A DNA stretch of 64,000 bases, from the NCBI GenBank assembly GCA_008632985.1, contig QPGO01000197.1, positions 62,001 to 126,000 of the forward strand, read 5' to 3'. Under the pieces are notes generated by a model that did no database searches, was not told where the DNA came from, and worked only from the letters and a program-made list of their open reading frames with translations. Origin of the DNA: Psammoneis japonica (lineage: Eukaryota). Made by a program: the position numbers and the translations under genes. Below are positions 18,293 to 54,434 of this stretch, in pieces (the stretch's first letter is position 1; the number at the start of each line of letters is the position of its first letter).

Positions 18293-18527
18293 TCTGTGAA
18301 CGCCTTGTTGTTCTCGGCTCGTTCAAAAAATTGTTGCTTCGCTCTGAAATGGCGCGCAGACTTGCTCAACAGCCAACAACAAACACTGCAAATGCCTGGA
18401 CTCTCTCGGGTATGAAAGCAAACTCTAGAAAGGAAGAAGGCACAAATTCGGATAGAAGGCAATGAATGAGGTGCAGTGCGGTGACAAGATACGGAATTTG
18501 CATGTTCTTTTTGAGGTCTCTCTATCC

Positions 18528-20718
18528 GGGAGTTGCATGAAATGTCAAAATTTTCGTTTTTCCCTGCAAAAACGCACAGAAATGTCAGAGAGACCTGCCT
18601 GCCTGCATGCGAGTGCCACGGTCTGCACGATGCTGCGAAAGTTTGTGCACTTTCCACTCAAACGATGCTCGCACTTTTTGCCAGGGGACATGCCACAGAC
18701 ACACAACATTCGAGGCATTTGGCTGCAGGACAAATCCTGTGTGTTTGGGACTCTGGTTGATTTGACAAAATGTCGAAATTCCATGAAAGGCTTCTCAACA
18801 ATTGTCTTTTTTCCAACCAGTGCCGAGAGAAAATGCCCCCAGAAATGCAGGTGGTTGTGTCTTCACCAGACCCCTGCCAAAATTTCTCGTTGAGAAGACA
18901 ACCCAATGGAGTGAGAATGTTAAAATGATGTTGCACAGTGTGTGAAAAACAACTCACTCAATTAGGTTGGCATGGTGCATCATCACAAGCACTGAATGAA
19001 CGACAACACGGTGCGACAATCGATGCTGACGTCACCTTCTGTCGGTGCCCGCCTGTCAGCTCATTTCCTGCTGCACTCACATTTGCGTGTCTACACACAC
19101 ATCATCGGAGTTGCTGTGAGAGCACATGCATGATGTTGTCACGGCGTTTCTGCACGCATGAGTGTGCTGTGTGGCAGGTGCGACTGCAAGAGAGACGCCG
19201 TTGAGTTCCCTTCTCGATCCCGAGCTCCGATTTGAGCCAGTCACGACTGTCTCAACCTCATCGCTTTTCGTGCGACAGCACAGATTTCAAATTCAAATCC
19301 CGCCAAATGGCTCCAACCGCCAAAACCAGAAAAGGCCTCTTGGGGGGGATTGAGGGCTAGACCATTTTGGGTTGTTGTCGTTCAAGATTCCCTTGCACGC
19401 CGTTCCAAAAGCGTTCCAGAAGCGTTCCAACACCGTTCCGAGAACGTTCTCATGTGCACCAATTCACGTGGAAATCAAACTTTGGAGCCGGTCAATTTGC
19501 CAATGAGACATGTGATGCATTGCAACCAGTGCACTGTTGTTAGAACCATTTGAGCATGGCACAACAGTGCAAAAGTTTAACAGATTAGATGGATTCATTG
19601 CAAAAAGGTGCACCCGTCAAAACAGGTTTCTATTTTCTCCAAGGAAAAGAACGGCTGTTGGAAGTCTCAACAATTTTGAGTTGCAGTGGCTGTGAGTTAA
19701 ACTGCCATGATGTGTTGCAACTGCTGGTGTTGTTTGACACTAAATCACATCTGTGACAACCGCCAATGGCTCCAACATGGAAATGCCATTCGATGAAACA
19801 GGCATTTCGTCGTTCCCGTGTTTCCACCGTTCCGGGACCACACCAAAAGCGTTCCCAAAGGGAATCTCTCTAAAAGGCCCAACATCACAGCATTGTTTTT
19901 AGACATTGGAAACGAATGAGAACCCTGCCTGACAATGCATGGAACCATCAATCCACCTGCGGCAACAAAAACACTGCTGCATGGCACTGTGGCGCGGCAG
20001 CAATCATTTTAGCACAACAATGTAAAACATCAAATGCGCAACACACGACTGCACTGCTCACCACACAAATGCGCCTGCCCAGAGCCACAGCAGATTGTCT
20101 TGCAAGGACAGTCATTCAGAGGCCGACAAGATCGGAATGGATTTGGAACCAATGGGTTCGCGTCACACTTGAGCACTTTGCAGGACATGCAGCAGTGTGC
20201 GAGTTGTGGGGCCTTCTTCAAGATGAAGGCAACCTTTCTCATGGGTTCCTGCCCACTCACTTGTTGTGTGCCCTTGTTTTCTGAATCTGCATTGTTCTGA
20301 AACCATTTTGCCGGGAATCTGTGGTGGAGCACACGAAGACACGATAAGAAAATGGTTTTGTGTCGGAACAGAGTCAATTGTAAATCTGGACTTGTTGCAT
20401 TCCATCATTCCAATCTCTTTTTGAAAATCAATGTGCTGGCATTAGCTTCACCATCTTGTCATCTTAGACTGACTGGCAACCCAGGTTTGTGGATGACAAT
20501 GGCATGCACGGTGACGGTGGACGGCACTGACTTTCGCTTTGCACAACAAACCATCGCCGCCTTCGCCGTTCGCTCTTCACTCGACCCCATCCATCCGGTG
20601 TCTGGTGTTTGCATGGCCCTGAATGCAAAGCTTTGGGGGATGTGTAAAATGAATTGTCATCACGAAAAACCACGAAAAACAGGGAAAAACGAAAATGTCA
20701 ACATTTCATGCAACTCCC
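18528..20718. mobile_element. Degenerate non-autonomous TIR (DNA) transposon, ~2.2 kb
   Basis: Left end GGGAGTTGCATGAAATGTCAAAATTTTCGTTTTTCCCT is a near-perfect inverted repeat of AGGGAAAAACGAAAATGTCAACATTTCATGCAACTCCC (20681-20718); no clear TSD. Confidence 0.65.
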
Positions 20719-22334
20719 CGCATTTCATGGATCGTGGATCCAGATGCAAGCTTCAACTCGACAGAAAAGGTTGACCGTCATCAAGCCGTTTCAGCGAACC
20801 AAGACTGAAAAACATGGTTCGCAAAGTGTGCTGGGCCAGTGTCGACTAAAGAGAGGATTGTGGTGCAACTTCGAAACAAACATGTGAAAAAAGACTTTTG
20901 CCCAATGACCATCTCCAGAGACCCAAGGTCAGGGGTGGGCTCTGTTCAAGAACACACATGCAACTTGCAGCTCACAAGAACAAAACTGCGCTCTCCCCAC
21001 AGCACTCGCAATCATGTTTTTTTGTGCAGAGCAGAGGGCAACATCCTGGTGTTTTGTGGCATGCTTGTCATGTGCGAGTCCATTGATCACATGCAAACCT
21101 CACATTGATGTGCACTTTTGTTGTTGCAAAATGTGATGCCAGCTTGCTCGTGTCTTTTTTCTCTTTTCTGCTCTTTGTGGGTGGCAGGTGTGGTGTCCTC
21201 TTGGCGTCGCTTCTCTCGTGTTTCTTCTTGGCTCTCCCACAGCCATTTGCCCACAAGGCTTCTTCATCACTCTCATTTCCTGCAACATTTTTGCATGCAC
21301 AAATGTGCCATGTGTGGAGCACCAAAGTGCCACCACACAGTTTTCTGAGTTTGTTTGGACACCCGCGGCTCTGCCCCCCACCCCCCCCCCCCCCTCCTGA
21401 GCGGCTGGAGTGCTGCAGACCTTGCTTGATTGACCTGCTTTGTGGCTGATGTTGGCCTGCTGAGATGTCAGGCTGGGCTGCTTGCCAAGCACTGTTGGGG
21501 TCAACAAATCTGTGAAAACTCTCCTGCGTCGCGCCACATGCTGCTGGGTTGCCTTTTTCGCCTCTGCCGCATTTGCCCTCATGTTGTCTGGCAGGCTGCT
21601 TTGAACTTTGTGGAATGGCCCAACATTTGCCAGTGCATGTTGGCTGGCAAGATTGTGCCTCAGAACGTCCAAAATCATGTGGAGATGCTCAACATGAGAC
21701 ACAATCACTGGAGCTGTTTGTGCCGGCCACTGGGCAAGCAATGCTGGGCAATTTGCCATCTTGTTGGAGCTTGGCATTTTGTGCCTTGTCTCTCACATCC
21801 CTTGAATCCAGACACACAAACCCCAGATGATGTCAATGATGATGCTCAGCATCAGCCAAGAAGGGCACAATGCTGAACAATGCAGCAAGCCTGGTGCAGC
21901 CGGCATCCCCACCATGGCCGCCGATGATGCCACTTTCCTGCATCTGCAGGCTGTCCGCAGTGATGCTGATCCCACAGAAGCATGCGCTGGAAAAAGCAAC
22001 TCCCAGTGTGAGACCTGCAACAGGCTGTGGAAGTCTCCATGTGACTGAGACTGGTGTGACTCTGGCCATCGCGCAAGTGACTCACCTTGCTGCATGAAGG
22101 GTCTGCACAGGATGCACGCAGTGCCGAGTGTGACTGATTCCGCGAAAGGACTCAAACTCTGCATGTCTCACTGTTGCACATGTGCACACTCTGTGCAAAA
22201 TAATCTCATGATTTTCACAACACTGAAGTCTCTGCATTGCAAGCACTTGTTCCCTGTTTCTGCATGGGTCACAGCAACATTGCTCCCGGCAAGTGCAAGA
22301 ATGGTTTGCTTGGACAACAATGAAGGTCAGACAA

Positions 22335-23462
22335 ATGGCATTTAGTGCATTCATGACACTGGCAGTCATTCCGCTGATTGCCTTTCAACATCCAGTTAAG
22401 AGGGTTCTGAAAGAGAGCCAACATCAGATGCACAAACTGCGCACAAATCCGAATGACCCGGACAGCCCCACTTGTGAACTTGCGGTTGCGTGCTTCTTGG
22501 CAGAGTCACCTGAAGAATGGCTCCTTTTCTTAAAGGACTTTGACTGCATTTGCATTGGACAAAATGTTGTGACAGGACACGGTAAATTTTTGCTTGTGAG
22601 AAGGCCATTGCAGAGGGTGAAGCCCTTGCAGCCTTTGACAATGCTGCAGCAAACAAGAGTGCAGAAACAGCAGCATCACTGGCACGTTGCATTGCTGCCG
22701 TTGCCAAAAGTGTCTTCCCAGAAAGGGGTGCATTGACACAAAAGCACTGTTCAAGGCATTTTGTGCAAAACCCGCGAACATCAAAATGCGTGATTGTGTT
22801 GCTCGTGCCGTGGAAATGAGTGCGCATGTTCCAAAATTTCCACCTGTGCAAGATGGTGGACCAGTGCCGCAAGCACTGTCAAAAGACAATTTGGTTGATT
22901 TGTTTGAATGTGGCATTCCACGGCCATGGCAGAGCACCAGATGAAGTTGCAAGGATTCAATCCCTTGGCACACACCATTCCAGAAATTGTCTCTCATTCT
23001 GTGAGCGTGTTGAAGAAGTTGAATCTGCTGACAAGCTCATGGCCTCCACCTCACCTGAAGAGACAACCCTGAAGATGACTGGCAGACAATCCAATTCAGT
23101 GTGAAAAACCAAGTCATGGAGTCACACGCCAAGAGAAAGTTGACATCGGCGGCAAAGAAGTGAGCTTCAATGCGACGTCAGATGCAATGCGTGAGAGGAA
23201 GTGCGTGCTCCATGGTTTGGGTGATCACAGTGCTGAAGGCTGCTGGGAATTGAAACATCAAGTCAAGTGACTTAAAGTGATGTCAGCTCAGAAAACGACT
23301 GATGCATGCAATGGAGAGGAGCTCAATGCCAATGGACAAGCCATTGGAAGCACATTGAAGTGCATGGCACGTGATGATGTGAAGGCAAACAGAGAACTTT
23401 GTGCCTTCAAAAATGCGCGCCCCTCTGAAGATTCAGATGCTGACACCAATGACTGGAAGTGA
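22335..23462 (+). pseudogene. gag: Degenerate retrotransposon gag-like ORF
   Basis: KLRTNPNDPDSPTCELAV..SPEEWLLFLKDF..GQNV, KPANIKMRD..EM..FPP, DLFECGIPRPWQ, CVLHGLGDHSAEGC knuckle; frameshifts and stops. Confidence 0.65.
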
Positions 23463-24020
23463 ACCGCATCTGACAAAAAATGGCCAATGTGGTGCGACAG
23501 AGTGACCTGGCTAGACTCCAGAGTGACGATGTCTCAACGCTCAAGTGCAGCAGGTGCACGCACCCATGTTCTGGAGGCCTCAAGTGGCAAAATGTCCACT
23601 GAAATGGCGACAATGACAATGACTCCCTTGATGCATGAGAAGGTGGTGTTGGACACAACAAAAAATGTCCCTCAGCAGCAGCAGGACCCTTCTTTCACTC
23701 GCAAGACCTTGTCACAGGGGCGCGTGCAGCAGGCACCCCTGCTGTGGCCCCCAATGATGCCACTTTCCTGCATCTGCAGGCTGTCCACAGCAACACTGAT
23801 CCTGCAGAACAGAAGCGCATGTTGGAAAACTTGACTCCCAGTGCAAGACCTGTGACAGGCTGTGGGAGAGTGTCCGCATGACTGAGACTGGCACGACTGG
23901 CCATCACACAAGTGACTCACCTTGCATGAAGGGTCTGTGTGGGATGTGCACAGTGCCAAGCATGACTGGTTCTGTGAAAGGACTCAAACTCTGCATGTCT
24001 TGCTGTTGCACATGTGCATG

Positions 24021-24558
24021 CCACTGAGACACAAAATTTGCAAGCTGCAAATTAAAATTTGTTGAGACAAACAGCTTGCATTTTTTCATGTTGAAAGCAC
24101 ATGCGAGGTCTCAGAGCACTTCGTTTTTTGCTTCAAATGAGCAAATGCCTCTGTTTTGACAACCGCAGGTCTGCAAGTGATGTGAAACAATGCACCAATT
24201 GGATTGTCGTCATTGTGAAGAGCTGCGCAATGTTTTGTTTGTGAGGAAAGGCGGTGCACTTGTCCAAAAAGGTCATTTTTGTTGAAATTTTGTGATGCGC
24301 TGGCATGAGTTGCAGACACGAGAAGGCAGCTTCCTTTGAAAACAATGATTTCTCATCCTTTCTTGTGTGTCATGTCTTTTCTCAATCAAAGTGGAAAGAA
24401 CACCTGCACCTTGAACAATGCCAGAGGATGTTGCCTGCATTGCAAAGACAATCTTTGATGGTGGCAAGGGTCATTTCTTGACTTGTTGCGTGGCAATTGT
24501 GCGGGGATTTGGAACTTGTCACAAATTTTGCAATGTTGCAAATTTTTCGATTTGGCAG
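24021..24558. mobile_element. MITE inserted in the 3' LTR of the gag-only element
   Basis: Absent from the 5' LTR; flanked by CATG/CATG (empty site CACA, compatible with ancestral TATA); imperfect TIRs containing AAAATTTGCAA / TTGCAAATTTT. Confidence 0.65.
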
Positions 24559-25115
24559 CATGCTCTGCACAAAATGATCTCATGATTTTCACAACACCAA
24601 AATCTCTGCGTCGCGTGCTTGTTCCCCATTTCTGCACGGGTCACTGGTGGCCACCCGGCCATCTCTAAAAGCCTGACCAAGAATCTTTGTGGTGATTTTC
24701 AAGCTGGAGCATTGAGCCTGGATCTTGAAATTGGGTGGCTGAACTTTTGGGCCATCTGCAATGCAAACACATTCCAGACACACTGCAGGCAGGAATCCAT
24801 GTGACACTCTTGGGCCCCAAGAACTCTGCATGCAAGCTCAGCAATCAAGCTGGCACATGGCTGTGATGAACGCGCCAATGGTCACCAACAGAAAAAAGCA
24901 GCAGTTTTGCAGGTGCAGAAACTTGTCCACTCATCCATGCTCAAAGCACTTTTGTTTGCCTGGGTGACAATTCTGCAGATTGGTGCAAGCAGAAATGGGT
25001 GCACGTGCAACATGTGATGCATTGTCAAAAAATGTTCATGTTGCACATGTTGGCAGCACTGCAAGCTCCAACCTGGAGCTGGAGAGCACATCTGTGGCAA
25101 CACTGAGGCAGCATG

Positions 25116-25567
25116 TGCAGCGTGCATGCAGACAAAAGGTCATTTTTTTTGTCACGCCCTTTGTGACATTTAAAGGCTGCAACACGTCGCCATGATGCAT
25201 TGACTCTTGTCAGCAGCTGCACATTGCACTCCTCCCCACATGTGTCACGCGTCCATGCGGCTCTTTGCCAATGTGTGCTGACACTGCATGGTTTTGGCGG
25301 AACAGTGTGGGCACGCACGAAGGAACACACAGAACTGCACAGAGTTTTGCGTGTTCGACAGTGATCAACGTTGCTGCAGACAACTCCCACTCAGGGTTTC
25401 GAACCCCTGGACTCCTGCCCAATGGTCGCGATGAACCACTCCGCTGTGAATTCACAACGCAGCATGCATGCAGACAAAAGGTCATTTTTGTCATGCCCTT
25501 TGTGACATTTAAAGGCTGCAACACGTCACCGTGACACATCAACTCTTGTTGGTGGCTGCACATTGCA
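25116..25567 (-). mobile_element. TRIM-like miniature LTR element, copy 1 (LTRs 25116-25228 and 25458-25567) with internal tRNA-like A/B-box
   Basis: ~110-bp direct terminal repeats; TSD CATG (25112-15 / 25568-71); PPT GGGGAGGAG on minus strand next to the LTR; second copy at 63196-63642. Confidence 0.8.
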
Positions 25568-27896
25568 CATGATCTTGGAAGAGCAGAGAAACAGGGGTGT
25601 TGGCGCCATTGCTGTCAGAGAACCAGCTGGAGTTTTTTGCCACAAGAGATGAGATGGAAGCAACAAAAATTCTTCATTCTGCCGTTGGAGGCATGAGGGC
25701 CAATGCTGGGAGCTGCAAGCCAAACGCTCAGCTCCTGGGGGGTTGGCTTGCTTGTTTTTGTTGGGGGCAAGAATTTTGCACAAAAAGAGTGGTCAAAGGA
25801 GGACAGAACCTGCCACCACCATTGGCTTCAGAAGAGATGAGTGTGCGCTGGGCTGCTTTTGTTGTGACACAGTGCAGCCTGCCACAAGGTGGAGAGATGA
25901 TGCTCCCACAACAACAAGGTGACCTCACTCCTTTTGCACAGAGTTTGCACTGCATCTGTGGGCTTGTCAGGCTGGGGATCATGTGCCACTGTCCAACAAA
26001 AGAGGAGAGAGACAGAGCAATCTCCAATTGTCCTTTTGACATTTGTGGAATGTTGCAATGTGGAGCCAGAAGTCTGCTCTTTGAGGAAGACAGAGAGAGA
26101 GGCATCAATGCACTGAGATCACATGCAAACTGCCCAAGAACCACATCTGGCATGATGTGCCTGTCTCAAAGCTCATTGCTCATGCACAATGAATGCACTG
26201 CTGCATGGTGCCTGCCCTTCTTGCAGCCCCACACCATGCTGCACCACAAAACACAATGGGGGTCTTGTGGTGCACCAGGAGCATGTGTCATGCTCAACTC
26301 TGTTTGCTGGGGGGTGTCACAAACCCATGCATTAAAAATGAAGTCACTGCTGGACATTGCAGCTGTGCTTCTTTTTGGCAGTTTGCCAGGTTTGACCACT
26401 GCTGGATGCCAACCTGTTGTGCATGTGGCACCTGTTGGCCCCAAGGCAAACAACCCAAATTTTCTTGTCCTTGCTCAGATCATGGAGGGGGTGCACTTCA
26501 CTTTTCTTCAAAGCCCACCACAAGAAGGATTTGCAACCTGCAGCAGCAACCATCTGGCTGCGCACCAGACCTTGATGTTGACTCAACATGGAGGTGCATC
26601 ATCACATGATTTGTGAGAACATGTCCAGCAGCGCACACCAGACAAGCTCCATCTCTGGCTGCTGGGCTGTGAAGTGAGAGTTTTTGGGTCATGCACTGCA
26701 TGTCATGCACACACATTTCATTGTGCAAGTGCCGTGCTCCCCATTTTGCAAAGTGCCAAAGGGTTTTTGTTGCAACCATTTTTGTGAAAACAAAAGCTTG
26801 CAAGTCATTTTCTTTGATGTCTGAAGAGTGCACACTTGGGCAAGCCAGAGCTGATGCACTCAAAGAATGAAAGAGGAGAAACTGAAAACAGTGCAATGGC
26901 AAAATTGTCTCTTTTTCAGTTGGCAACAATTGACACATGCATTGCCCAGCAAATTTGCTGCAGAGCTTGCATGCACAGAGTTCTTCTGGTGTGTTCAAAT
27001 GATGTTGCACAGAGTCCTGCCTGGGGCGGGAACACACCGCCAGATTTGCTCACAGAACACAAGGCCATCAAATTGCCTTTCTGGCAATGTTTGTGACAGT
27101 GAATGGAGAGCATCATGCTTTGCAGGATCTTGCACTGGTGCTGTGTCCATTTGTGTCCCCCACAAAAGTCATCAGGCAAGAAATTGTCCAAAAGTCATCC
27201 AAAAAGTTGAAGGAAAGAAACAGATGGAAAGAAAAGTGGTGGGGGTGCTGCCTGCGGCAATCAGGGTCCTCTGTTTGACTCAATCGCGGGGCGCCAAACC
27301 CACCACTGACAGAATTTGAACAAGATTTTAGTTTGTCACACACAATTGTGTGTGCTCTCAATTCCGCATGCATGACACACGACGCAGCTTGCTTTCGAGC
27401 CACTCGGCTCACAAGAAGAATGACAACATCACAGCAGCGCTGACATCACGACACACATCTTTTAGCTCCTGTGATGGCATCCACATGGACACTCATCTGC
27501 TGTTTGGACAGCAGCAAGGAGCCATTGTTTTCTTCCACCTGCTCCATCTTCAACATTTCTGCCCTTCTCCGACAGCAGCCATCGACCGTCTCTGTGCTGC
27601 AACAATGTGAGCGCAGCCACTGCTTGCTGTGATGGGGCACAACAATCTGCCGCAAGGCAGAAAGTTGGCATTGCCACAACAAGGTAAACTCGTTTCCCTT
27701 TGTGCAGTTTGCACTGCAGTTCTAAGCTGTTCAGCAGCGGGGATTGTACCATGTCGCGGTCCAAACAAATGCGGGGAATGTGGAATCGGAAGTCTGTTCT
27801 TTGAGGGAATTACAAAGTGACGTCAATGCATGCGCGCGTCCGGCGCCCGTCTCCAAACTCGTCACTCACGACGACACGCACACAACAAAATCCACC

Positions 27897-29098
27897 ATGA
27901 TGCTGTCAGCGTCGTCATCCACAACAAGCCATGCTATTGTTCGTGGCGTGGTGACGAGAATAATCTCTTCTCGTTGTGTTGCTATTCGTTGTTTCTCCAC
28001 CACAAACAACAAAGATGAATTCATTCCACGCCGCCGTTCCAATCCACAATACCGTCCTCTCGCCAAGCCCCCCACCGTTCAAAAGGACGTGTTTGAATTG
28101 CAAGACAGTGACAATGATTTGCTGACGTTTGGAAGTGACGCAGCCGACGCTCTCCGTCATTCTCGTGCCTTGCGAAAAAAGGAGGGAGTCGAATCTCATT
28201 TTTTGCGCATGGCCGATTACATGACGGCACGACCGGGCACGACGGAACACTACGTGAGTGAACGCAGAGCACTCGCCATGGATTTGTGGGAACATGAGGA
28301 TCGAAGTGACGTGTTGCGAAAAATGGATGAATTGGTAGAAACGGAACGAATCAAGCAGATGGAATTGGGAGACGATGACATGGAACCCATTAACAAGAGA
28401 GATCTGTCTGAAGAGAGTGAGGAGGAGCCCAATCAACTGGTGCACGGTGATTGGTGAGTGCGCTAGTTTTTAGTTTTTTTTTTGTTGACAATTCAACTAT
28501 ATGAAGAGTCCATATGGGAGCTGGAGTGTCTTTATGACGACTTATGAAAACGTATAATGTCTTACTCACTCTTTCTCCTCTCTCAAAAACCTTCATGCTC
28601 ACCTTCAGGGCCGAATCTATCATTCAGGTGGACCGCGTTCAAAAAGTCCAAAGAGGCGGCACCATGGTACGGTACCGTGCCCTTTTATTGGGTGGCAATG
28701 GCCAAGGCGTGGCGGGTTTTGGAATTGCCAAGGCCAATTCACCAGCCGAAGCCACGACGGCCGCGTCGCGCATTTGCAAACGCAATATATACTTTTGCGA
28801 TCGCGTACTAAACAAGGGATTGACACGTGATTTGGTGGGCAAACACAATTCGTGCAAAGTCTTTCTGAGAGCAACCTCACCGAATTATGGATTGAAGGGA
28901 CACGACTTGGTCAAGGAGATTTTGATTCTCATGGGAATTACCGATTGTTCGTGCAAGACACACGGAAATCGGAACCCGTACAATGTGGTTCGTGCCACCT
29001 TTAAGGCCATTGCGACGCATGAAAGCATGGAGGAGATTGCTCTCAAGCGAGGCAAGAGGCTCTTGAGTTTGGAACGAGTCAAACGATTGCAAATCTAA
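27897..29098 (+). CDS. MRPS5: Mitochondrial ribosomal protein uS5m (S5); join(27897..28453,28609..29098)
   Basis: Ser/Thr/Arg-rich presequence; S5 motifs IIQVDRVQKVQRGG..YRALLLGGNGQGVAGFGIAKA and GNRNPYNVVRATFKA; GT-AG intron restores W-AES. Confidence 0.9.
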
Positions 29099-29393: not shown

Positions 29394-30275
29394 TTAGAGG
29401 ACGTCGTCCAACTCCACAGTTTCCAAATCCATCTTTTCTTGTGCGACGCGTTCTATTTCCTCATCTGTCTCTTTGCTGTCAGTACCATAAAGCGAGTCCC
29501 GCATAATGGAAGCACCACGTACTTTTCCCGGGAGATGAAAGTGCCCGTGCTCGACATTGGAAACCGGTGCCGCTCGGTTGCGTCGTTTCCATGCTCCCAA
29601 CGGAATAATGGTGCGTTTGCCTTGACCAAAGACGTCATTGACAAGTTCGGCCGCTGCCAACCAATACGCGGTTGCCGCCGTGGCAATTCCAGTGTACCCC
29701 GCCACGCGGTCCACCGTATCGTTTTCGACTCCACCCATGAGGAGGAAAAACGTGGCGGCCAACAAGAAAAACAAGAGACAAATGGTCTTGTTCATGGCAA
29801 AGGTACAAATCCACAAGACCACAGTGTACAAGCCACACAAGAATAGCATGGCTTGGGATGCCTTGGGACTGACAAGGGGAGCGTCTACTCCACCCAGTAT
29901 TGAAACAATCTCAACAGTACCTACGCTTAACCAAAAGCCGCCATAGAGCAAAAAGGCCGTGTACCCAAAAATATTGTTTCGTTTGATCTCGGAAAGACCT
30001 GCAATCACTTGCAAAAGGCCACCAAAAAACATGGCAAAGCCCAACACGATTGCATCCACTTCATTTCCCGTACCTTCAATTCGCGTGTGTTTGACTTGGA
30101 GTAACGCTGTGGTTAATCCAAAAGCAATCAAACCGAGTGGCGCTGGATTGGGTACAGGTGGATGAATCTGTGGACCAAGCAAGTTGACTTCTTTGGAAAG
30201 TTCCTTCCACGGAGAAGAAGAAGAAGAGGAGGAATGATGATGATGGTGATGATGATGTTTCAGTTGACTCGTCAT
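29394..30275 (-). CDS. GPR1/FUN34/YaaH (SatP-like) acetate transporter
   Basis: NPAPLGLIAFGLTT signature, FFGGLLQVIAG, NIFGYTAFLLYGGFW; 6 TM segments; N-terminal poly-His/Ser. Confidence 0.92.
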   Translation of the reverse strand: MTSQLKHHHHHHHHSSSSSSSPWKELSKEVNLLGPQIHPPVPNPAPLGLIAFGLTTALLQVKHTRIEGTGNEVDAIVLGFAMFFGGLLQVIAGLSEIKRNNIFGYTAFLLYGGFWLSVGTVEIVSILGGVDAPLVSPKASQAMLFLCGLYTVVLWICTFAMNKTICLLFFLLAATFFLLMGGVENDTVDRVAGYTGIATAATAYWLAAAELVNDVFGQGKRTIIPLGAWKRRNRAAPVSNVEHGHFHLPGKVRGASIMRDSLYGTDSKETDEEIERVAQEKMDLETVELDDVL

Positions 30276-30844
30276 GATTGCGGGTGTCGTGTTTTGAAAA
30301 TTGTGAGCTGACGCGTGTGATTGGAATTCGCGATCGGCATGAGAAATGCGAATCCCAATCAACACAACCACGATTGAACACGCCGTTCCAACGGACCGCA
30401 ACGGACAATCATTTATTGGAACTGTTGAGTTAGATTTTAATGGATATGAGGAAGGACAGCAACCATTCCAAACACTCGGCATGACCAACACCATGGTGTT
30501 GCTGCCATTGTGACAAGCGGAACAACGAATGAAACGGCATTGTTGAAGTCGCTTTTGATTTTGTGATTGCGATCTTCAGTCACGACCGTTAAAATCATTC
30601 CCGTTTCCTTGGTAATGGCGTCTGGCTGTCGCTCGCTCAAAAAGCCCGCGAAAAATAGAAAGCGGTGCAAACGGCGCAAAAACGCGGTGACACCGGTGCG
30701 ATGGCGATGGGATTCAACGCCTTTCACTTTCATCAACTGCCCAACCTTGTTGTTCCAACAATCTGTGAATGTTTGCCATGACGGCATTGCACTCCTTCCT
30801 GCGAGCACGTCTGAACATCCTTGTTGGTTTTGGCTTTGTTTCAG

Positions 30845-33800
30845 GATGGATCACAGTGATGAAGAAGAGCAAGAGCAGCGTCTTGTTGACACTCTCCAAA
30901 ACTTGGAATCTTCCATGTCGATTCGTCTCTGGTGACTCTGTTTGCAACCACCCTGTTCCACATCTGATGGTGGCAGAGGCAACAAGATTCCATCGCCCTC
31001 GGTGAAGTGCCTCCTTTCGATCATTCATGCTGACCTGCAGAGCAGCCGGCCTGTTCCAGCTCCAGGTGATCTGCTTTTCATCATGCAAGAGGCCGATTTT
31101 CTGCACAGTTTAGCACAATCACCTCCTTCATTTTTGTCGTTTTGAAAATCGAAAGGTGAGTGCACACCCAAAAATGCATGCAAAGTGTGCACTCACCCTT
31201 CGATTTGGCAAAAAACGGATTTGGAAAAAGTCAATTGCGCCAAATGCACAAATTGCCAAATGACAGGAATCGAACCCTCGCGGAGCACCTGGAGCTGGAA
31301 CAGGCCAGCCCAAACAGTTGGGAACCAGACAATGTCATGACAGAAACAGTCACGCATCTGATTGCAACCTTGCAGGATTTGCATGGCAAACAAGGTGTCG
31401 ATCCTCAAACCAGGGAGGCATTGCAGATTTCCCTGTCGGTCCGCATCCCAGCTCTGTCTCTGTCAATTTCGCGGCGCAAACTCGGCGGATGCAAAACCAT
31501 TCTGAACCCACCTGCGCAGCGCGTGAATCCAGCTGCAATGGCGTTGCAAGTCAAGGACTGTTTTTCCAAAATCAAATGTGCCGGCCAATGCAGTGGGAGA
31601 GAATGTCTTGGCATGCAAAAGGAGGATGGGTTGCTCTTGTCAGTGTGGAGGAAATGCGGTCTGAGCCTCTGGATGCAGCGATTGCGGGCATGTGCGATTC
31701 GCACTGTGCGGAGGATTGTGCGAGCATCTTTTTGCCTCCAGATGGCAATGATGATGCATGGATTGAAGCTTGTGCCAATGAAGTTTGAGAGATGGAGGAG
31801 GTGGGTGAGGCAAAGGGGACCCACAAGACACGCAGTCATTTTCAGATTTGCGCATTTGCTGGATTGGTTCAAGCCCTTTGTGATTGCGTCATTGCATCAG
31901 AGAGTTGCGCCAGTGGCAATGATGCAATCCATGTTGAATGCGAAGAGGACACAACTCAAATGCACCATGGATGGTCCAGATCATGGGCCGCCAATGAAGA
32001 CGAGCCAAAAAAGAACGACTTCTTTTGTGGAGTGAAGTTGGGAACAATTCTCCACCACACCAAGGAGCATGCCAAGACATTCATTGTCCCAGGCGTGACC
32101 AAGCCTTGGGTGGCCACTGAAGCAGCAGTGTAAATTTTAAGATTGAATTGAATTGCTGGTCCCAGATGTTCATTGCCGTTTGCCAGATTCCACACAGACA
32201 TTTCAAAGAAAGAGACTCTGCCCAAGCCCACCAATGAGCCAACGACTTCACAGGATGTTGAAATCTGCCATGCTTGCAGTGGCTTTGTCGGCAACTTGAT
32301 CCAGGTGGAAGGGCATTCTGGCAAATGCTGGGTTCATGATGGCAGAATTGTTTTTGTGCATGCAGGATTTGGACCCAAAAATCAACAATTTTGTGGTGCC
32401 ATTTGTGTCTTTGATGTCAATCCAAGCAACACGCCAGCAAGAAAGTGTTCAGAACTGAAGCCAGAACATGAGTTTTGGAATGCTGCAAGGAACATCCTTG
32501 TGCAGTTGATTTCAACAAAACTGTGTGGGTGCACGCGGACAGAAGAATCAAAGGCTTCTCCATCTTTTGTGACAAAGAGGAGTCTTGGTTTGATGCCAAG
32601 TGCATCTTTCAGCTCAAAGACAATCCTGAATCTTTTTGCACTGAGAAAGAATGCAAGTCACCATGCTGCAAACTTGTTGAAAGCAGCAAAGCCGAATGTG
32701 GTCGCTCCAATCTTTTGGCATTTGGTTCAAGGCACATGGGATGCCTCAAAAATGGTCATCTGCAACAGCGGAAACTCAGCAACCAAATGAATGTGATGGT
32801 GTACATTGTGAGGTTGAGCTGCAAAATCTTGAAGAACAGACAGCAGCGTGGCCTGAAGATGAAGTGTTTGACTTCAGCAACGGCACTTGGGTGGACAAAT
32901 GTGGATTTGTGGAGACAAGCCGAGGTGTGAAACCTGATTTCATCAGGCCTGTCGACATTGTGGCCCCTGCATTGATTGGACATTTGCCAAATGGCCAATT
33001 CGCATTTGGCTGTGCATGCTGTGAAAGCACTCATCTCAGAAATGGGCAGATTCCAATCTACAACAATGAGCTTCAAGAAGTTGCTGCTCTTGCAGGAATG
33101 TTCAATGATGGGATTGAAGTTGTGCAGTGCCCCACCTTTGGAGATGAGCCATTGCTGGCAGCCAGCAATTCTTCAAATGTCAAGACATTTGATTTGCGCT
33201 CTGGAAAAGCTGAGATTGCCATTCGACAAATGTGCATCAACGCCACTCCAATCCATGTCGGCAATGCAAAGTTTGTTGCAAACATGCTCCATGGCACAAA
33301 AGGGGTGATGATGTGGGACATTGGGGCTCTAAAGCCCATGCATTCTCTGCCCATCGCACCGAACGATGGAACAGCCTGGACTCCAATGGCAGAGGCAACA
33401 AGGAAGCCGCCCATTCTGGTGTGCGGCAATGGAAGGACGTGTGCATTTGATGGGTCAAACGACAATCTCAGCGAGAGAGAGCTGGGGTTTTGCAAAGGTT
33501 GAACAGAAGAAGATTGGAGCAAACTGGAAGAAAAGAACCATGTGGGCAGTGAGGGAGAGAATTTCTTGATTGTGTGGAATTTGCATTGTTGTGGAATGCA
33601 CAAAAAGATGCTGTGTGCAACAGTTGCAATGCGATCAAGTTGAGAGCATCTGCTGTGCCACAGATCATTTCTTTGAGATTTCGGAAAGCGGACAAAAGAG
33701 CTGGATGTTTCGTGTCTGTGCACTTGTGAGCCAATCCTGCTTCCCTTGCCATTTCAATGAAGGCCAAGCAATTCTGCCGGACATGATGCATCCCGCAGTT

Positions 33801-34070
33801 GGCACCAACCAGCAGGCAGACAATGGCGCGCGTGTTGGCAAAAATGCTGTCGCAACAGCCAATGCTGTGTGCCTGCATGGTGAGTCGCACCAATGCCTGT
33901 GAAAACACATGTCTCACAATGCTCTCAGGCAAGCTCGTGGTGCCGCAAGGCATCAACATGATGCAAGTGGCAACAGCTCATCAGAAAGTGGTGCTCATGT
34001 TTGTTGGCAATGAGGTCAACAAAGGTGCAGAAGCAGCGTGGCTTTTTTGCAATTGCGCAGCTTCCACCTG
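30845..34070 (+). pseudogene. Decayed host-like gene(s) including a WD40/beta-propeller-like segment (~32800-33500), TpA-depleted
   Basis: Protein-like fragments across broken frames (MDHSDEEEQEQRLVDTLQNLE; SSNVKTFDLRSGKA; KGVMMWDIGALKPM); Tyr nearly absent. Confidence 0.4.
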
Positions 34071-34782
34071 AGCTCGCAGAAAAATTTGGCGGTCATTGGC
34101 ACCAAGTGAGAGCATCTTTGCCAGCAAGTCATGAACATGAACCCGCGTCTGTGCATCTTCTGATGCAAATGAGACTCACCCAAAATCATCATTTTCAGTG
34201 GATCACAAACCCACTTGTGGCGCCAATGACCCTTGCAGATGCCTGTTGGCGCAAAGATTGCTCCAACCCTAGAACTTGCTCAAGGTTGCTGAACAGCCTC
34301 AATCAAGAGAGATTGCTTTTGCGCCATGCTGGCAGAACCCCCAGTCTTTGCTGCAAACTGTTGGGTGCGAGGGGCCACAATTTTGGTGGGTTTGTCTGGG
34401 GCACACTGCACTTCTGCATGGTTGCCATGAAGCAGCAGGTTGAGTGATCAGCGGCACTCTCATCAGCCTGGTTGTGGCCATTGCAAGGTGCTGACAGGGT
34501 TCCTCCTTGCACCCACCAGTTCTGGACATGCCCGCTACACCACAGCCAATGAAACCACCATGACTCAAAGGCACTGACAAGAAGGCAGTTTAAGACCAAA
34601 GCAAGAACGGCAAATCTTTGGTGACAAAATCATGCACATCATGACAACAATCCTGAGAACAAGTTGCCCCCCTCCTCTGCCATTTTTGTGTGGGGTGCTG
34701 AAGCTCCTGTTCAACCAAAGACTTTCCTTGGGGAGCGCTGCAGAGAAAAAAAAGCATGTCCTCAAAGCAGCACCAGCAGCTG

Positions 34783-36190
34783 CTGTGGGTCCCAACCCTT
34801 GAGCAAATCCAAACTGGCGTGGCAGGCGCACTCCTGATGAGCGCACAGACCATCACCGCTGCGCCATTGCTGTCGCGGGGAATTTGATCAAATCTTGCAC
34901 CGACGATGGTGATGATTGCGACGCCAAGAAAGTCATCTAAACCTTCGATTCTGCGAGAATGCATTTGGCACACAATCAATTGGCACCTGTTGGACAGGTG
35001 TCTAAATGCGTTCTCCACGATTTTGATTTTGTGGCGAGCTGTTGATGAACACACCGATTCAGTCGTTCGTGACGCCATGTCACGTGCCGAGTCTTCATCA
35101 ACCACTCATTCGCCGGATTTTCGACACCTGCTGAGAGTGAAAGCCAGCGGACATGTGAAGGCAAGGGTGTAGAATCGAAATGGTGTTGTCATTGTGCCAA
35201 AGTCTCGCCACTTGTTGTCTCACTCAACTGTCATGCAGACGCAGCCAATTTTCACAGTGTCAATCGTCGTGTGAGCTCATCGACAAATCCAATGTCGCAG
35301 TCCCATCGTCAAACCCGTTTTAGCAACGACAATGACAAGAAGAACATTTTTCAAGACTTTGACAAAGCAACTGCAATGCGATCAGCCAGTGTTTTTGAGT
35401 GGGAGAGGGTGGGGCGTGGGTCGGATTTTTGAGCAAAAATGCAGAGTGAAGTTGGCGCACTGTTGAAAAGAAGCAGTCAAACAACGTTGACAAAGTTGCA
35501 CATTGATGACACTCTCCTATAGAAGAGTGAATTTATGCAATGGAAGTGCCCCCTTGCTTGCATGTGCTCTAGATTGATCGCAAAAACACAAAAATGTTAA
35601 ATCTGAAAACAGGAGTGTGTTGCTTGTAATGAGTTTTTGTGGATTGCTTGGCCTGTCTGTGGCATGAAAGAGGTCAAACACAGTTGTCACGAGGCCAGCC
35701 ATGGATGTAGAGAACAGAAAACAGCCATGAAATGGGTCTTGTGTTGATGTTGTCATCTAATCTCGGTGTCGAGAACACTTCATCGTACAGTGAGTCACGT
35801 GTCTTGAATCCCGTGTGACCCACTCGACTCAACATTTTTGGCAGAATCAGCTGGACTTTGATCCCCGCTAGAGCCACAAAATGCACAAGATGTGAGCATT
35901 GTCAGTCTCCTGCCCTCCAAAACAATGTCTTGCGAGAACAGATTGGGCATGCATTGTTCATGGTGTCAGGCATTTGAAAATGGAACTGACGTTTCGCGGA
36001 GCACCTTTGTTGCACGTGAAAGTGCGAGGAACGATTTTCAGTCATCGCTCTACAACTAACGCAACCCTCTGCTTGCGACCCCAAAAGTCATCGGGAACTT
36101 TGTGTCAGCATGATGTCAGTTGGATGAAAATGCATTTTGGCAAAAAATGGGGGGGTTGTGATCACAAGTGGAAGCATGACGGACCCATGG
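34783..36190. mobile_element. ~1.4-kb insertion with short TIRs in duplication unit 1
   Basis: Absent from unit 2; ends CTGTGGGTCC..GGACCCATGG (a perfect TIR if ancestral CTATGGGTCC..GGACCCATAG); a 3-bp TSD CTG makes the empty site the same length as in unit 2. Confidence 0.55.
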
Positions 36191-37004
36191 CTGCTGCCAT
36201 CATGGTTTCTTTCTGTGGCATCATGTTTTGACACTGTGTGGTCATTGCTTTCAAAAAGACTGCAAGGCATGTGACAATGGAAGAGTGCTTGAAATGTGAT
36301 GCAATGCGGGCAAAAATGGACTTGAAGGGTGGGGACAAAGTGTGATGGCATTGTTGCAGCAGCAGCTGTGCAGGACTCAGGGTTGCTGGCCTCAAACCAA
36401 GCTGCACATGGCAAGGAAGGCTCTCTGTTTCAAGCTCTGTGTGCAGTGTTCTTTTGGTTTTGGGGTGCTGCAACGACTCTCTGCCACTGGACCTTGGAAG
36501 GTTGGTGCCTGGCAGTGGCTGCTCAGTTGCTTGCCACACCCTCACACCCCCCACACCCCTGAGCTGTGGGTGTGCAGAACAATGGAGTCTTCAACAGCTG
36601 ACAAGATCCCACAAATGAAGTGCGTGTGAGCACCCCAGCTTTGGAGAGGTGTGGCATCAATGACAAGGGTGCAACCCAACAAATGGCAGTTGCCGCTGAT
36701 GGCATGTTTCCTGGCCAACGCCCTTTCTCCATTGGTTTGTCACTCCAGCCGGCATTGAGTGAAGCAAGTTGCCAGGAGGTGTGTGTCACCAGCTCTCTAA
36801 ACCACTCATGTCACCACCCTCATCTTGTTGGCCAGCGTCATTGCGTGGGGCAAAGTTTGAAGATGACAGCCAAGATGAGGGATGATGGCATGCACGCACG
36901 CAGAGCGCAGAGATGCGGCAGGGAAGCCGCGGCATGCCGGCAGAGGGCCTTCTGCATAAAATCATCTCACACGGTGCACCTGCAACCCTCGCTGGCTCAT
37001 GACA

Positions 37005-37756
37005 ATGGGCTTTGAGACAAGCACTTTCATCTGCCAGCCGGCAGACAAAAATCTTTGCTGTCCATTGTGCCTGCAAGTTTTTGACAGCCCAGTGACCACA
37101 TGCCGTGAAGGTCGCGTGCTCTGCAAGGCATGCTTCAACAAGCTGCGCCCTCCAGACAAGGGAAACATCACTGTGGCCACCTCCAACAAATGCCCGCAGT
37201 GTCAAGGATGCTTGGTGGACACACCACTTCCAAACCACCCTCTCCAAGGCATCATGTCTGGCCTGAAAATGAGATGCGAGAAGGTCACTTGAACTGTGTT
37301 GCCTGCGCCAGTCATTGCACCGGAGCATGCAACTGGCAGAGAACTGTGGAGGAATGTGTCACCAACCACAAACAAACTTGCAATCCCTTCGATTTGCATG
37401 GTGGCTCAACAGAATGCTCAGCAGCACAAGAGCAGATCAGACGAGGTGCTGACAGCATTGCGGCAGCTGTGCTGGAGTCGGGAGAAACCAAAGAACAAGG
37501 CAAGGCTTTGGTGCAAGCCCCGGCCCATGATGACGCATGGTCAGTTTCTCTTGCCCTTGGAGGAGAACAGGCCAGGGTGGATCACCTGTTGCCAGTGGAC
37601 TGTTCTCATTTGGCAATGAGGGAACAGGGCAGATTCATTGGGGACTTTTGTGGTGGCAAAGCAGAGATCACTTGGGAAGAGGCACGTGTTTTCTTTGTCA
37701 GGTGCGTGCTCGACCAGATTCATTCAAATGATGAAGGCCAGGAAAACAAGGAATGA
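37005..37756 (+). pseudogene. Hypermutated, frameshifted copy of the RING-finger gene at 39691-40494
   Basis: Colinear with the intact gene; many TA->CA/TG and CG->CA/TG changes; frameshift near 37280 and an internal deletion. Confidence 0.9.
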
Positions 37757-40494: not shown

Positions 40495-41313
40495 ATTATT
40501 TTGCGGTAGTAAACGTCAAGGGGCAAGATCAGTGTGAACGGATTGTCTGTGATCTTATATCCGGGCGTGATTTCTTCTTCTACCCCTTTGTTATTATTTG
40601 TCATATTCCCTATTCCGATTTATGCGTTGGAAGGATACATGTAGTACATGATAAGATTCGGATCATATCTTTTGCGACGTATTGATGGAAATCTTCTCTT
40701 TGGATCCATTTGCGCAATAGAATGTGTCGATCTTTTTAATCTCTCTTGTTGTTGCATATTGCAAAGCTTCCGCATCCACTGACTCCAATTATTTTACAAT
40801 TAACTTTTGTGCGTATGCTCATGTTGCTGCTACATCCTGCTCTGCCCCATTGAACAGCGGCAAAAAAAGTGACTTGGGAAATATGGTCGCCGAGGAGGAT
40901 AGATGCAAGGACTGGAAGACCGGAAAGTTCCAGAATGCTTCGTCAACCACGACATGGTTCCGAAGCGCAAATGGGCAGGTAGGATATCAGTGCGAAAGAA
41001 TGCACATAGGAAGGTTGGGGTAGATGGCATGAGCCAGTGCACCGTACAGTCCGAAGGAGCCAGGCGTGGTAGTATGTATTAGATGCAGAAAAGAAATACA
41101 TCATAGCTTTTAGGTCGAGAACTGAATGCGAATGGCTTGTAAGCACTTCGCTTTTAGAGTGACGCAAGAGAGCCATTCTCTTCATTCTGAAATGCAATAT
41201 CATATTGCGATCTTGCCGAAAAGAGAAGTGCCAACAATGAGCCAGACATTTTAAACTCAACTTTGCTTTGCAAATAAATAAACTAATGTGACCTAAGCCA
41301 ATTGAAAAGTAGT

Positions 41314-54194: not shown

Positions 54195-54434
54195 GGTCAA
54201 GGGTTTTCTCCCCAACATTTGGGTTTCCCTTCTATCCTCATCCATTGGAATTTAAATTTTTTGAGTCCCGCATGATTCTCGACACTCGAGTCATGGAAGG
54301 GAAGAGTGCAGTGTCTCGCACCTTATTTTTCTGACACACAGCATTAATGAACCTGTTAGATATAACGGAAGCCGTTGTAACGGGCTTCGCTGAAAGCGAC
54401 CCTCGTTACCTCGGTCTTTCGCTCACAATTTTGT

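Follow-up and report, generated by a model that had tools for sequence, protein, structure and literature searches.

Within the 64-kb window (the whole stretch of DNA that was analysed), four blocks containing transposons and pseudogenes are strongly depleted of TpA, and the best overall explanation, to which we assign a probability of roughly 0.55, is a mutation process that would act in place on DNA, converting TpA to TpG or CpA with a preference for adenines followed by a pyrimidine (5'-TAY), adenine deamination being the presumed chemistry. The parts of this explanation differ in strength: we are highly confident of the footprint and of the TAY preference, and give adenine deamination about an even chance. 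The coordinates of the relevant features are collected in Table 1. Note that all rates given below derive from this one window.

Table 1. Features of the window discussed in the text (o/e, observed/expected).
Feature	Position	Strand	Basis and remarks
Partly mutated repeat	18901..20880	.	20 surviving TA; left edge of block 1
TA-depleted block 1	18525..28217	.	HMM; 42 TA in 9693 nt, TA o/e 0.067, CG o/e 0.46
TRIM-like element	25108..25568	+	two ~110-nt LTRs; second copy 63188-63643
TA-depleted block 2	30159..39621	.	HMM; TA o/e 0.066, CG o/e 0.45; holds mutated SINA-RING copy
Mutated copy of SINA-RING gene region	37001-38094		inside block 2; paralogy with 39687..40985
Intact SINA-RING gene region	39687..40985	+	Pfam, alignment; ancestral proxy for 37001-38094; 5' end is block 2 border
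Gypsy 5' LTR start	48689..48816	+	unmutated; 96% identity to 54307-54434
MITE-like element, 396 nt	49343..49738	+	alignment; intact, ancestral proxy
TA-depleted block 3, Ty3/Gypsy internal region	49835..54231	+	Pfam: protease, RT, RNase H, integrase
Gypsy 3' LTR start	54307..54434	+	polypurine tract before it; first 50 nt mutated; ended by N gap 54434-54458
Intact GDSL-lipase gene region	54680..56236	+	Pfam, alignment; ancestral proxy for 57572-59823
TA-depleted block 4	57405..63991	.	HMM; TA o/e 0.086; mutated GDSL-lipase pseudogene copy and mutated MITE
Mutated GDSL-lipase pseudogene copy	57572-59823		inside block 4; alignment with 54680-56236
Mutated copy of 396-nt MITE	58050..58445	-	inside block 4

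TpA is converted to TpG and CpA in place

Segmentation of the window with an HMM placed the borders of the four blocks, which are sharp. Each block spans 4-10 kb and has a TA observed/expected ratio of 0.07-0.11, compared to 0.57-0.64 outside, together with an excess of TG/CA; at 21-27 kb, for example, the TA ratio is 0-0.08 and the TG/CA ratio is 1.83-1.99. Saturated sequence, in which the TA ratio falls as low as 0-0.03, makes up ~30 of the 64 kb. The GC content of the blocks is near 0.49-0.50, with no enrichment for AT. The contents of the blocks include a Gypsy element, a MITE, TRIMs and pseudogenes. The summed contig depth of the TRIM-like family is ~58,550, which points to a very abundant family. 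In block 3 the Gypsy ORF reads through four in-frame TGA codons, and the TA ratio is 0.109 while the CG ratio is still 0.87. A Pfam scan of 65 block ORFs matched just one, a weak GDSL match at 58523-59065 in the mutated GDSL copy; the other 64 were unmatched, and blocks 1, 2 and 4 yielded no protein of a transposon.

The direction of the change could be read from seven alignments of intact copies with copies inside the blocks. At 116 positions where the intact copy has TA, the block copy has CA (50), TG (45), TA (7) or something else (14), and CG was found at only two of these sites. The partners of the GDSL, SINA and MITE copies that lie outside the blocks have normal TA content and intact ORFs. 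In the mutated MITE, 23 A>G or T>C changes fall at TpA and eight elsewhere, and there are only four C>T changes. Moreover, comparison of the two Gypsy LTRs over 128 positions gave five differences, TA>CA (four) or TA>TG (one), and every one of these changes is in the LTR adjoining the block; since the twin LTRs differ solely by these five changes, the mutations must have occurred in place on DNA, following integration. The process thus runs from TpA to TpG or CpA at the DNA level, is largely specific for TpA, uses both strands, and favours a pyrimidine at +1 (see below).

Sequence from run X1 bears on whether the blocks were assembled correctly. Contigs in this run at single-copy depth (~60) match stretches deep inside the blocks with 0-2 differences, indicating that the pattern is not an artefact of assembly. 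At positions that are TG/CA in the window, other genomic copies in the run have TA (15) or CG (8), accounting for 23 of the 29 listed transitions, an agreement that is not independent if, as may be the case, run X1 is the sample behind the window's assembly.

We considered the idea that the changes originate in RNA, in that double-stranded transposon RNA might be A-to-I edited by an ADAR-like enzyme and then reverse-transcribed into DNA. The targets do include a Gypsy retroelement, and ADARs are reported to prefer a U 5' of the edited A (10.64898/2026.01.13.699255). However, the two LTRs of a single element differ, placing the change later than integration, and mutation extends beyond the retroelement, in continuous blocks, to the MITE, the gene duplicates and single-copy sequence. 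In addition, conversions of the two strands are randomly interleaved: no strand coordination of adjacent conversions was found, 50 of 93 neighbouring pairs being on the same strand compared to 47.6 expected. ADARs, moreover, are metazoan enzymes that favour G at +1, which is disfavoured here. An origin in edited RNA is therefore scarcely credible.

Sequence context of surviving and converted sites

The original prediction of a TAY preference was made from a partly mutated repeat (18901-20880) whose summed contig depth of 1126-2534, compared to ~60 for single-copy DNA, identifies it as a member of a repeated family; none of its four ORFs matched a Pfam domain. The split of contexts counted there by hand proved exact, the 20 surviving TA sites comprising 14 YTAR (TTAA, TTAG, CTAA or CTAG), four RTAA, two CTAY and no RTAY. 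Outside the blocks, YTAR accounts for 201 of 1395 TA sites, and against that baseline at least 14 of 20 has a binomial p of 2.7e-8 and the absence of RTAY a p of 5.6e-4. A first-order Markov expectation from the dinucleotides of the region itself gives 5.3 YTAR, 10.0 mixed (RTAR or YTAY) and 4.7 RTAY sites, where 14, 6 and 0 were observed. The survivors in this region are thus richer in YTAR than expected by chance.

The same bias is present across the window. Comparison of the NTAN tetramers inside and outside the blocks gave survival of 0.441 for YTAR, 0.087 for mixed sites and 0.023 for RTAY (79/59/9 sites inside and 201/758/436 outside; chi2 147, p 1e-32), the outside baseline being mostly coding DNA. 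It is seen in each of blocks 1-4 (27/13/2, 19/17/3, 15/14/2 and 18/15/2 survivors for YTAR/mixed/RTAY), and it persists when repeated copies are masked and under a different segmentation. Nor does correction for composition level the classes, as it would if all NTAN tetramers were equally depleted: under a Markov expectation from the blocks' own composition, there are 79 YTAR sites where 43.7 are expected and 9 RTAY sites where 30.4 are expected (chi2 46.3, p 9e-11), and outside the blocks the direction of the bias is reversed.

A test that is free of any baseline comes from the alignments of element and gene copies. At mixed sites, where just one strand reads TAY, 45 conversions fell on the TAY strand and 14 on the TAR strand (p 6.5e-5), with seven of eight alignments agreeing in direction; the log-odds of strand choice for TAY are 1.20 +/- 0.32. 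Mixed sites inferred from other genomic copies supplied seven informative cases among the 40 of 643 differences listed, three for and four against TAY. Thus survival, composition-corrected counts and strand choice in the alignments all bear out TAY (a 3' pyrimidine, by the adenine-strand convention) as the preferred target.

It might nevertheless be argued that there is no mutational preference, and that the YTAR excess arose from the original composition of the transposons, from selection on motifs (such as TTTAAA in LTRs), or from read or assembly error at modified bases. The outside baseline, being mostly coding, avoids in-frame TAA and TAG, some survivors lie in repeated and possibly functional motifs, and run X1 may be no independent check on the assembly. 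But the bias persists against the blocks' own composition, with repeats masked, and in four of four blocks; the strand choice of 45 versus 14 needs no baseline; and the contexts of the 116 TA sites in the intact copies are ordinary (13 YTAR, 68 mixed, 35 RTAY). Error at symmetrically modified sites should have produced CG, which is nearly absent from the aligned sites, and the sequence of the window is matched by contigs at 60-fold depth. We therefore consider this explanation largely refuted and very improbable.

An additive model with four parameters yields per-strand hazards by +1 base of 0.25 (A), 0.65 (G), 1.66 (C) and 2.45 (T); it describes all ten tetramer classes adequately (goodness-of-fit p 0.35), whereas a flat model is rejected (chi2 161). 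The order of the +1 bases is T>C>G>A by survival, which alone cannot tell +1 from -2, and C>=T>A>G by strand choice, which separates the two positions (values at +1 of 0.96 for C and 0.69 for T). Only the advantage of pyrimidine over purine at +1 is robust; the order within each class is not.

Individual elements illustrate the preference. As had been claimed, TTTAAA shows no variation among the four TRIM LTR copies, and TTAA and TTAG, and also TTAT, survive in the partly mutated Gypsy 3' LTR, where ATAT, ATAG, GTAT and CTAT sites have been converted. The preference had been described as not absolute on the strength of a site in the MITE, and this exception holds: the block copy has TCTTGAGA where the intact copy has TCTTAAGA.

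The TAY rule is incomplete, for adenines outside TpA that precede a pyrimidine also mutate above background. A>G differences fall in TpA in 100 of 197 cases and outside it in 97, with conversion rates of 0.24-0.56 at TAN and 0.03-0.14 at VAN. Among the non-TpA adenines, VAY is converted at 72 of 648 sites (0.111) and VAR at 25 of 700 (0.036; p 7e-8), and G>A changes have no such bias. An A at +2 appeared protective in a plain logistic model of sites inside and outside the blocks (~2-fold survival, chi2 62), but strand choice did not confirm this (p 0.58), and at TACA the effect may be partly a by-product of neighbouring conversions; after TAY, the strand-site conversion rates by +2 base are 0.66 (G), 0.73 (C), 0.63 (A) and 0.48 (T). 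(A mass balance of TGN gain against TAN plus CGN loss was dropped, there being more TGC than TAC sites to lose; this excess indicates that ancestral composition differs between blocks and genes.)

Both Tyr codons are TAY, and they had been named as targets. All 12 aligned Tyr codons are indeed lost in the two pseudogene copies, seven to Cys and four to His. Of 25 columns where Tyr is conserved in 60 homologues, the Gypsy ORF keeps Tyr at two and has Cys at 17, His at five and Phe at one, while its other conserved columns are kept (Asp 34/36, Phe 27/34, Asn 18/23, Trp 14/14), and its 1513 aa include only 8 Tyr, compared to 69 Cys and 58 His. None of the 60 Gypsy homologues closest to it is hypermutated; each retains 19-25 of the 25 conserved Tyr. 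Use of both strands is evident from the TGY/RCA counts in the four blocks, which are 651/640, 554/535, 225/162 and 426/374. There are hints of a strand asymmetry in the Gypsy element, where RTAY Tyr codons became Cys in seven cases and His in two rather than ~1:1 and RTGY outnumbers RCAY by 118 to 70, although this is not separable from coding bias.

Candidate chemistries

The process that we favour changes A:T to G:C in chromosomal DNA, in place, and is restricted to islands of transposons and pseudogenes. The two strands of each TpA are separate targets, a single strike rendering the site immune, and the per-strand rate is ~3-5 times higher for an adenine followed by a pyrimidine (5'-T-A-Y) than for one followed by a purine. 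YTAR lasts longest because it has no TAY on either strand, and RTAY is lost first because it has two. A nucleic-acid deaminase, drawn to silenced chromatin, would turn adenine in DNA into hypoxanthine, while CpG in the same islands would decay more slowly, probably by way of 5-methylcytosine. CpG loss strikes the T-C-G strand more often (30 versus 15), and the 5'-T preference of the same enzyme may underlie this bias.

As far as the sequence goes, the data could be read equally well as A>G at T-A-Y or as T>C at 5'-R-T-A. The target might thus be thymine: in silenced chromatin, an enzyme would modify the thymine of 5'-R-T-A (a dioxygenase of the TET/JBP type, for example, might oxidise it to 5-hydroxymethyl- or 5-formyluracil), and on replication the modified base would mispair with G to give T>C. 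Every result is symmetric in this respect, TAY being RTA on the opposite strand; moreover, the C of CpG and the T of TpA are each the 5' pyrimidine of a palindromic YpR step, and both steps decay in the same blocks. Thymine hypermodification is enriched at TpA in dinoflagellates and kinetoplastids, and 5-formyluracil mispairs with G. We nevertheless regard thymine as an unlikely target. To our knowledge, no such modification or enzyme is known in diatoms, and a study of the alga Bigelowiella natans favours adenine deamination in the main text of its preprint (10.64898/2026.01.13.699255).

Alternatively, TpA might be a casualty of error-prone repair, in that methylated CpG would deaminate, the resulting T:G mismatches would draw patch repair by a low-fidelity polymerase, and this polymerase would miscopy A:T pairs at TpA, much as happens in antibody hypermutation during its second phase. 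Loss of TA and loss of CpG are common to the same blocks, with the same borders, and the retention of CG in the TA-poor Gypsy block (observed/expected 0.87 for CG and 0.11 for TA) would fit faithful repair of CpG at the expense of TA. Consistent with the first step, diatom transposons are reported to be CpG-methylated (PMC9998398). However, AA is no better a target than CA or GA (AAY 0.08-0.10, CAY/GAY 0.11-0.14), and the changes at TA are almost exclusively transitions, 95 of 116 being to TG or CA. The hotspot of polymerase eta is WA, and such polymerases also make transversions. Error-prone repair is thus a quite improbable source of the changes.

Significance and relation to known systems

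So far, A:T-to-G:C DNA hypermutation as a genome defence is known from one 2026 preprint on one alga. In mutation-accumulation lines of B. natans, two integrated viral regions acquired 230 A:T>G:C mutations, every one of them at TpA, and over the long term TpA is lost with a gain of CpA and TpG, the TpA-poor genes being enriched for reverse-transcriptase and transposase domains (10.64898/2026.01.13.699255, Mettrop et al.). The two cases, so far as the preprint's main text describes the first, have in common A:T>G:C change on TpA that gives TpG/CpA, discrete regions of foreign origin, and coupling of TpA loss to CpA and TpG gain. They differ in that B. natans is a chlorarachniophyte (Rhizaria) whereas the named homologues here are diatoms; in that its active regions are still TA-rich (Rho at least 0.45), with 124 depleted clusters genome-wide, whereas ~30 of 64 kb are saturated here; and in that the preprint, in its main text, reports TpA only, whereas a weaker VAY component is present here as well. 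The words "context", "trinucleotide" and "flank" do not occur in that main text (10.64898/2026.01.13.699255). Apart from this preprint, our literature search found no report of the signature in diatoms or elsewhere.

Its saturation of transposon islands in an apparent diatom would place TpA hypermutation in a second major lineage, and its targets would include transposons and pseudogenes in addition to integrated viruses. It is possible, though we would sooner doubt than assert it, that one chromatin-directed enzyme, common to diatoms and chlorarachniophytes, edits silenced DNA from A:T to G:C at 5'-T-A-Y. Such a natural editor of DNA adenine would act as a "reverse RIP", removing Tyr codons, TAA/TAG stops and TATA-type signals from stray gene copies as well as from transposons and integrated viruses. 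The flank rule, T-A-Y far above T-A-R with TYTARA-type sites (TTTAAA, TCTAGA) the hardest to convert, would serve as a fingerprint for testing candidate enzymes, and a natural enzyme with such an activity on DNA would interest those engaged in base editing. There are also consequences for annotation: islands carry long false ORFs because they lack TAA and TAG, and Cys or His in place of Tyr hides transposons from gene and repeat finders. (With regard to annotation, Pfam matched just 1 of the 65 block ORFs.)

In repeat-induced point mutation (RIP) of ascomycete fungi, C:G>T:A changes at CpA create TpA, and both duplicates are mutated. Like RIP, the process described here is irreversible, confined to transitions, made at the DNA level and recognizable by a dinucleotide that defines it; transposons and duplicated genes are its targets, and their reading frames are ruined. 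Unlike RIP, it runs in the opposite direction, destroying TpA and making CpA/TpG, it struck one copy of a duplication (54680-56236 is intact and 57572-59823 mutated), and it left GC near 0.49-0.50 with no AT enrichment. APOBEC3 and ADAR act in animals on the cDNA or RNA intermediates of retroelements and leave strand-coordinated clusters of a single type. The likeness here is one of deaminase-type hypermutation against mobile elements; the changes in the window differ in being post-integration, on both strands and free of strand coordination, and in including DNA that does not belong to retroelements.

Among tRNA deaminases, the context had been likened to the U-A-C recognized by TadA, whose consensus is reported as UACG (PMC11472039). 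The likeness stands for T-A-C alone: T immediately 5' of the target A is shared (TAN 0.24-0.56, VAN 0.03-0.14), and C at +1 is favoured over purines, but T at +1 is at least equal to C, and G at +2 confers no advantage. Eukaryotic ADAT2/3 is described as selecting tRNA without base-specific contacts (PMC9643335), which differs from the TAY-preferring process here. Amphioxus ADAT2 (BjADAT2) deaminates DNA, with a reported preference for GAA at adenine and for T-C-G at cytosine (PMC10354150); the adenine of GAA is rarely converted in the window (3 of 112), whereas at CpG the T-C-G strand is favoured here too (30 versus 15).

TA-depleted blocks in the window

The window consists of gene-dense DNA that alternates with four TA-poor blocks, in which the observed/expected ratio of TA is 0.067–0.109 as against 0.57–0.64 outside. 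TG and CA are enriched in the blocks (up to 1.99), CG is partially lost (observed/expected 0.45–0.87) and GC content holds steady at 0.49–0.50.

TA-depleted blocks, positions in the window
Feature	Position
Block 1	18525–28217
Block 2	30159–39621
Block 3 (Gypsy interior)	49835–54231
Block 4	57405–63991

Long ORFs outside the blocks carry ordinary Pfam domains (FG-GAP, UNC-93/MFS transporter, ankyrin, lipases, GPR1/FUN34 channel and SINA RING), and homologues of the UNC-93/MFS transporter with 50–59% identity are found in Phaeodactylum, Nitzschia, Mayamaea and two Cylindrotheca species, all of them diatoms (six organism-named entries among the 120 matches listed, the sixth with a truncated name); on this basis we regard the window as diatom DNA. 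The blocks contain a Ty3/Gypsy interior, a MITE, TRIM-like elements and decayed copies of two neighbouring genes, together with repeated families and stretches that are single-copy at 85% likeness; the sole match in a Pfam scan of 65 block ORFs was a mutated lipase copy. TAA and TAG are erased in the blocks, leaving TGA as the only stop, so that long overlapping ORFs that are not genes crowd both block strands (for example 25573–26616 and 31160–32035).

At the border 39621/39688 the SINA-RING ORF starts at 39688, placing the intact gene's 5' end at the block edge, and at the border 30159/30275 the probable start Met of the intact GPR1/FUN34 gene lies near 30275; the promoters of both genes are thus in mutated DNA. 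Segment 33773–34082 of block 2 joins the flanks of the class-3 lipase gene (43361–43529 and 45422–45554) without the 1.9-kb gene; it may be a copy of the 'empty site' or have arisen by deletion. The class-3 lipase frame itself (43513–45042, minus strand) is interrupted by an in-frame TGA at 44329–44331 in otherwise normal DNA; the gene may have a short intron here or be a pseudogene, or the TGA may be an error. In block 4, 59230–59620 holds three tandem units of ~130 nt, 91–93% alike, whose source is the GDSL gene region at its 3' end (55921–56049).

Direction of the change and its action in place

We compared copies inside blocks with intact copies outside in seven alignments. The 116 TA of the intact copies read CA (50), TG (45) or TA (7) in the block copies, and the 172 CG read CA (55), TG (41) or CG (64); CG as a double product of TA is rare. 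Protein comparisons give the polarity of change, from Tyr to Cys or His. Two pseudogene copies have lost aligned Tyr at 12 of 12 positions (Cys 7, His 4), and of the 25 columns at which its 60 closest homologues keep Tyr, the Gypsy ORF shows Cys at 17, His at 5, Tyr at 2 and Phe at 1, with Asp, Phe, Asn and Trp retained at their conserved columns; none of these 60 homologues shows a similar Tyr loss.

The two LTRs of a Gypsy element are necessarily identical at integration. Here 5 of 128 positions are different, each a TA>CA or TA>TG change in the block-adjoining LTR, and since the differences arose from identical LTRs, the process acted on chromosomal DNA after insertion. RNA editing followed by reverse transcription is contradicted by this LTR pair, by the mutation of targets that are not retroelements, and by the interleaving of hits on the two strands. 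An artefact or composition effect alone is contradicted by the paralogue alignments, by the composition-corrected test (see below) and by reads: contigs at single-copy depth (~60) from sequencing run X1, which is possibly the sample the assembly was made from, show 0–2 differences from deep-block stretches, the same as for flanking genes, so that the block sequence is not a consensus artefact.

Strand use is approximately equal in three blocks, and no strand coordination of neighbouring hits was found (50 of 93, 47.6 expected), which points to many separate events rather than processive single-strand runs. In the Gypsy block sense-strand products prevail (RTGY 118 vs RCAY 70), with RTAY Tyr codons giving Cys 7 times and His twice; this asymmetry may be transcription-linked or merely coding bias. 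Positions 48689–49833 of the Gypsy element (5' LTR, gag-side 650 nt and an inserted MITE) are unmutated, and the block begins ~100 nt past the MITE end; the MITE may mark a chromatin border, or two copies may have been joined here in the assembly. In the mutated MITE copy the final ~60 nt (58055–58115) are unchanged despite GTAG and CTAC sites, the twins of which at the opposite MITE end were converted. Mutation appears to occur in discrete tracts, each with ends of its own.

In all four blocks CpG is lost to TpG/CpA more slowly than TA is lost (for example in the alignment of 54680–56049 with 57572–59358), and TA loss precedes CG loss: observed/expected values are 0.11 for TA and 0.87 for CG in the Gypsy block, and at 26–27 kb both are lost. 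The T-C-G strand was hit 30 times vs 15 on the other strand (p = 0.036), and GCGC is spared (survival 0.99). Diatom transposons are described as CpG-methylated, and RID-related DNMT4 genes of unknown function as present in many diatoms (PMC9998398), which suits the slower CpG decay.

Flanking context at TA sites

The original prediction, that TAY is the preferred target and YTAR tends to survive, came from a count by eye in 18901–20880, a partly mutated repeat at the left edge of block 1. Our count is the same (20 TA sites: YTAR 14, RTAA 4, CTAY 2, RTAY 0), confirming the observation. Measured against the DNA outside the blocks, where YTAR accounts for 201 of 1395 TA sites, the 14 of 20 YTAR have p = 2.7e-8 and the 0 of 20 RTAY p = 5.6e-4; the stretch's own dinucleotides predict 5.3 YTAR, 10.0 mixed (RTAR or YTAY) and 4.7 RTAY, as against 14, 6 and 0 observed. 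TTTAAA is indeed unchanged across all four TRIM LTRs, the partly mutated Gypsy LTR keeps TTAA and TTAG, and the MITE change cited as an exception, TCTTAAGA to TCTTGAGA, was seen.

Survival inside the blocks relative to outside, a baseline of mostly coding DNA, was 0.441 for YTAR, 0.087 for mixed sites and 0.023 for RTAY (chi2 147), with extremes of 0.58 for TTAA and 0.005 for ATAC/GTAT. This order is visible in each of the four blocks separately and is robust to repeat-copy masking and alternative segmentation. Depletion of NTAN tetramers remains unequal when the blocks' own composition serves as baseline (YTAR 79 vs 43.7 expected, RTAY 9 vs 30.4; p = 9e-11), and outside the blocks the composition-corrected bias is reversed. 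All ten tetramer classes are consistent (p = 0.35) with a model that hits the two strands independently of each other, the rate for each strand depending on the base that follows its adenine (A 0.25, G 0.65, C 1.66, T 2.45); the data reject a uniform rate (chi2 161).

Survival by itself is blind to the +1 versus the -2 flank of the mutated adenine, which strand choice separates. At RTAR and YTAY sites the TAY strand was changed 45 times vs 14 (p = 6.5e-5; 7 of 8 alignments agree); of the seven informative sites reconstructed from other copies in the genome, 3 spoke for the TAY strand and 4 against it. Note that because transitions preserve the purine/pyrimidine class of the flank, these classes are not blurred by neighbouring mutation; the ranking of C against T, and of A against G, differs between the survival and strand-choice estimators. 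Survival, composition-corrected counts and strand choice thus support the TAY preference.

Adenines without a 5' T also changed to G more often when followed by a pyrimidine (72/648, 0.111, vs 25/700, 0.036; p = 7e-8; eight paralogue pairs), which argues that the 5' T is a strong preference and not an absolute requirement; G>A showed no matching flank bias in the same alignments. An A at +2 approximately doubles survival (TAAA 0.38 vs TAAB 0.16–0.19; TAGA 0.36 vs 0.04–0.16), making TYTARA types (TTTAAA, TCTAGA) the most refractory, an effect that strand choice did not confirm.

Possible chemistry and known systems

The change is an in-place, island-confined, TpA-specific A:T>G:C transition with a +1 pyrimidine preference. 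A given site can be hit only once, since conversion leaves no TpA there. We put the probability that the chemistry is adenine deamination in DNA, also favoured by the authors of a Bigelowiella natans preprint, at about one half. A rival chemistry, in which thymine at R-T-A is modified and then mispairs with G, would leave the same sequence as adenine deamination. Error-prone repair patches set off by methyl-CpG deamination are a weakened alternative, as AA is hit no more readily than CA or GA.

RIP was rejected, the window's direction being opposite and only one duplicate copy being hit. The suggested likeness to TadA, with its UACG consensus (PMC11472039), extends to T at -1 and C at +1 but not to G at +2, for which the window has no preference; T is accepted equally at +1. 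Eukaryotic ADAT2/3 is described as making no base-specific contacts (PMC9643335), and of the GAA and TCG reported as favoured by amphioxus ADAT2 on DNA (PMC10354150), only TCG is echoed in the window.

TpA hypermutation in B. natans is the nearest known parallel, and our literature search found no other report of this signature. According to the preprint, mutation-accumulation lines carried 230 A:T>G:C changes, all at TpA, in two integrated viral regions, and TpA-poor, CpA- and TpG-rich clusters occur elsewhere in that genome (10.64898/2026.01.13.699255); the flanks of the mutated sites are not described in its main text (10.64898/2026.01.13.699255). The window differs in belonging to another lineage, in the degree of change, which reaches saturation, and in having transposons, a MITE and gene copies as targets. 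This kind of phenomenon has been described only very recently, and the flank preference adds a new, testable property to it.
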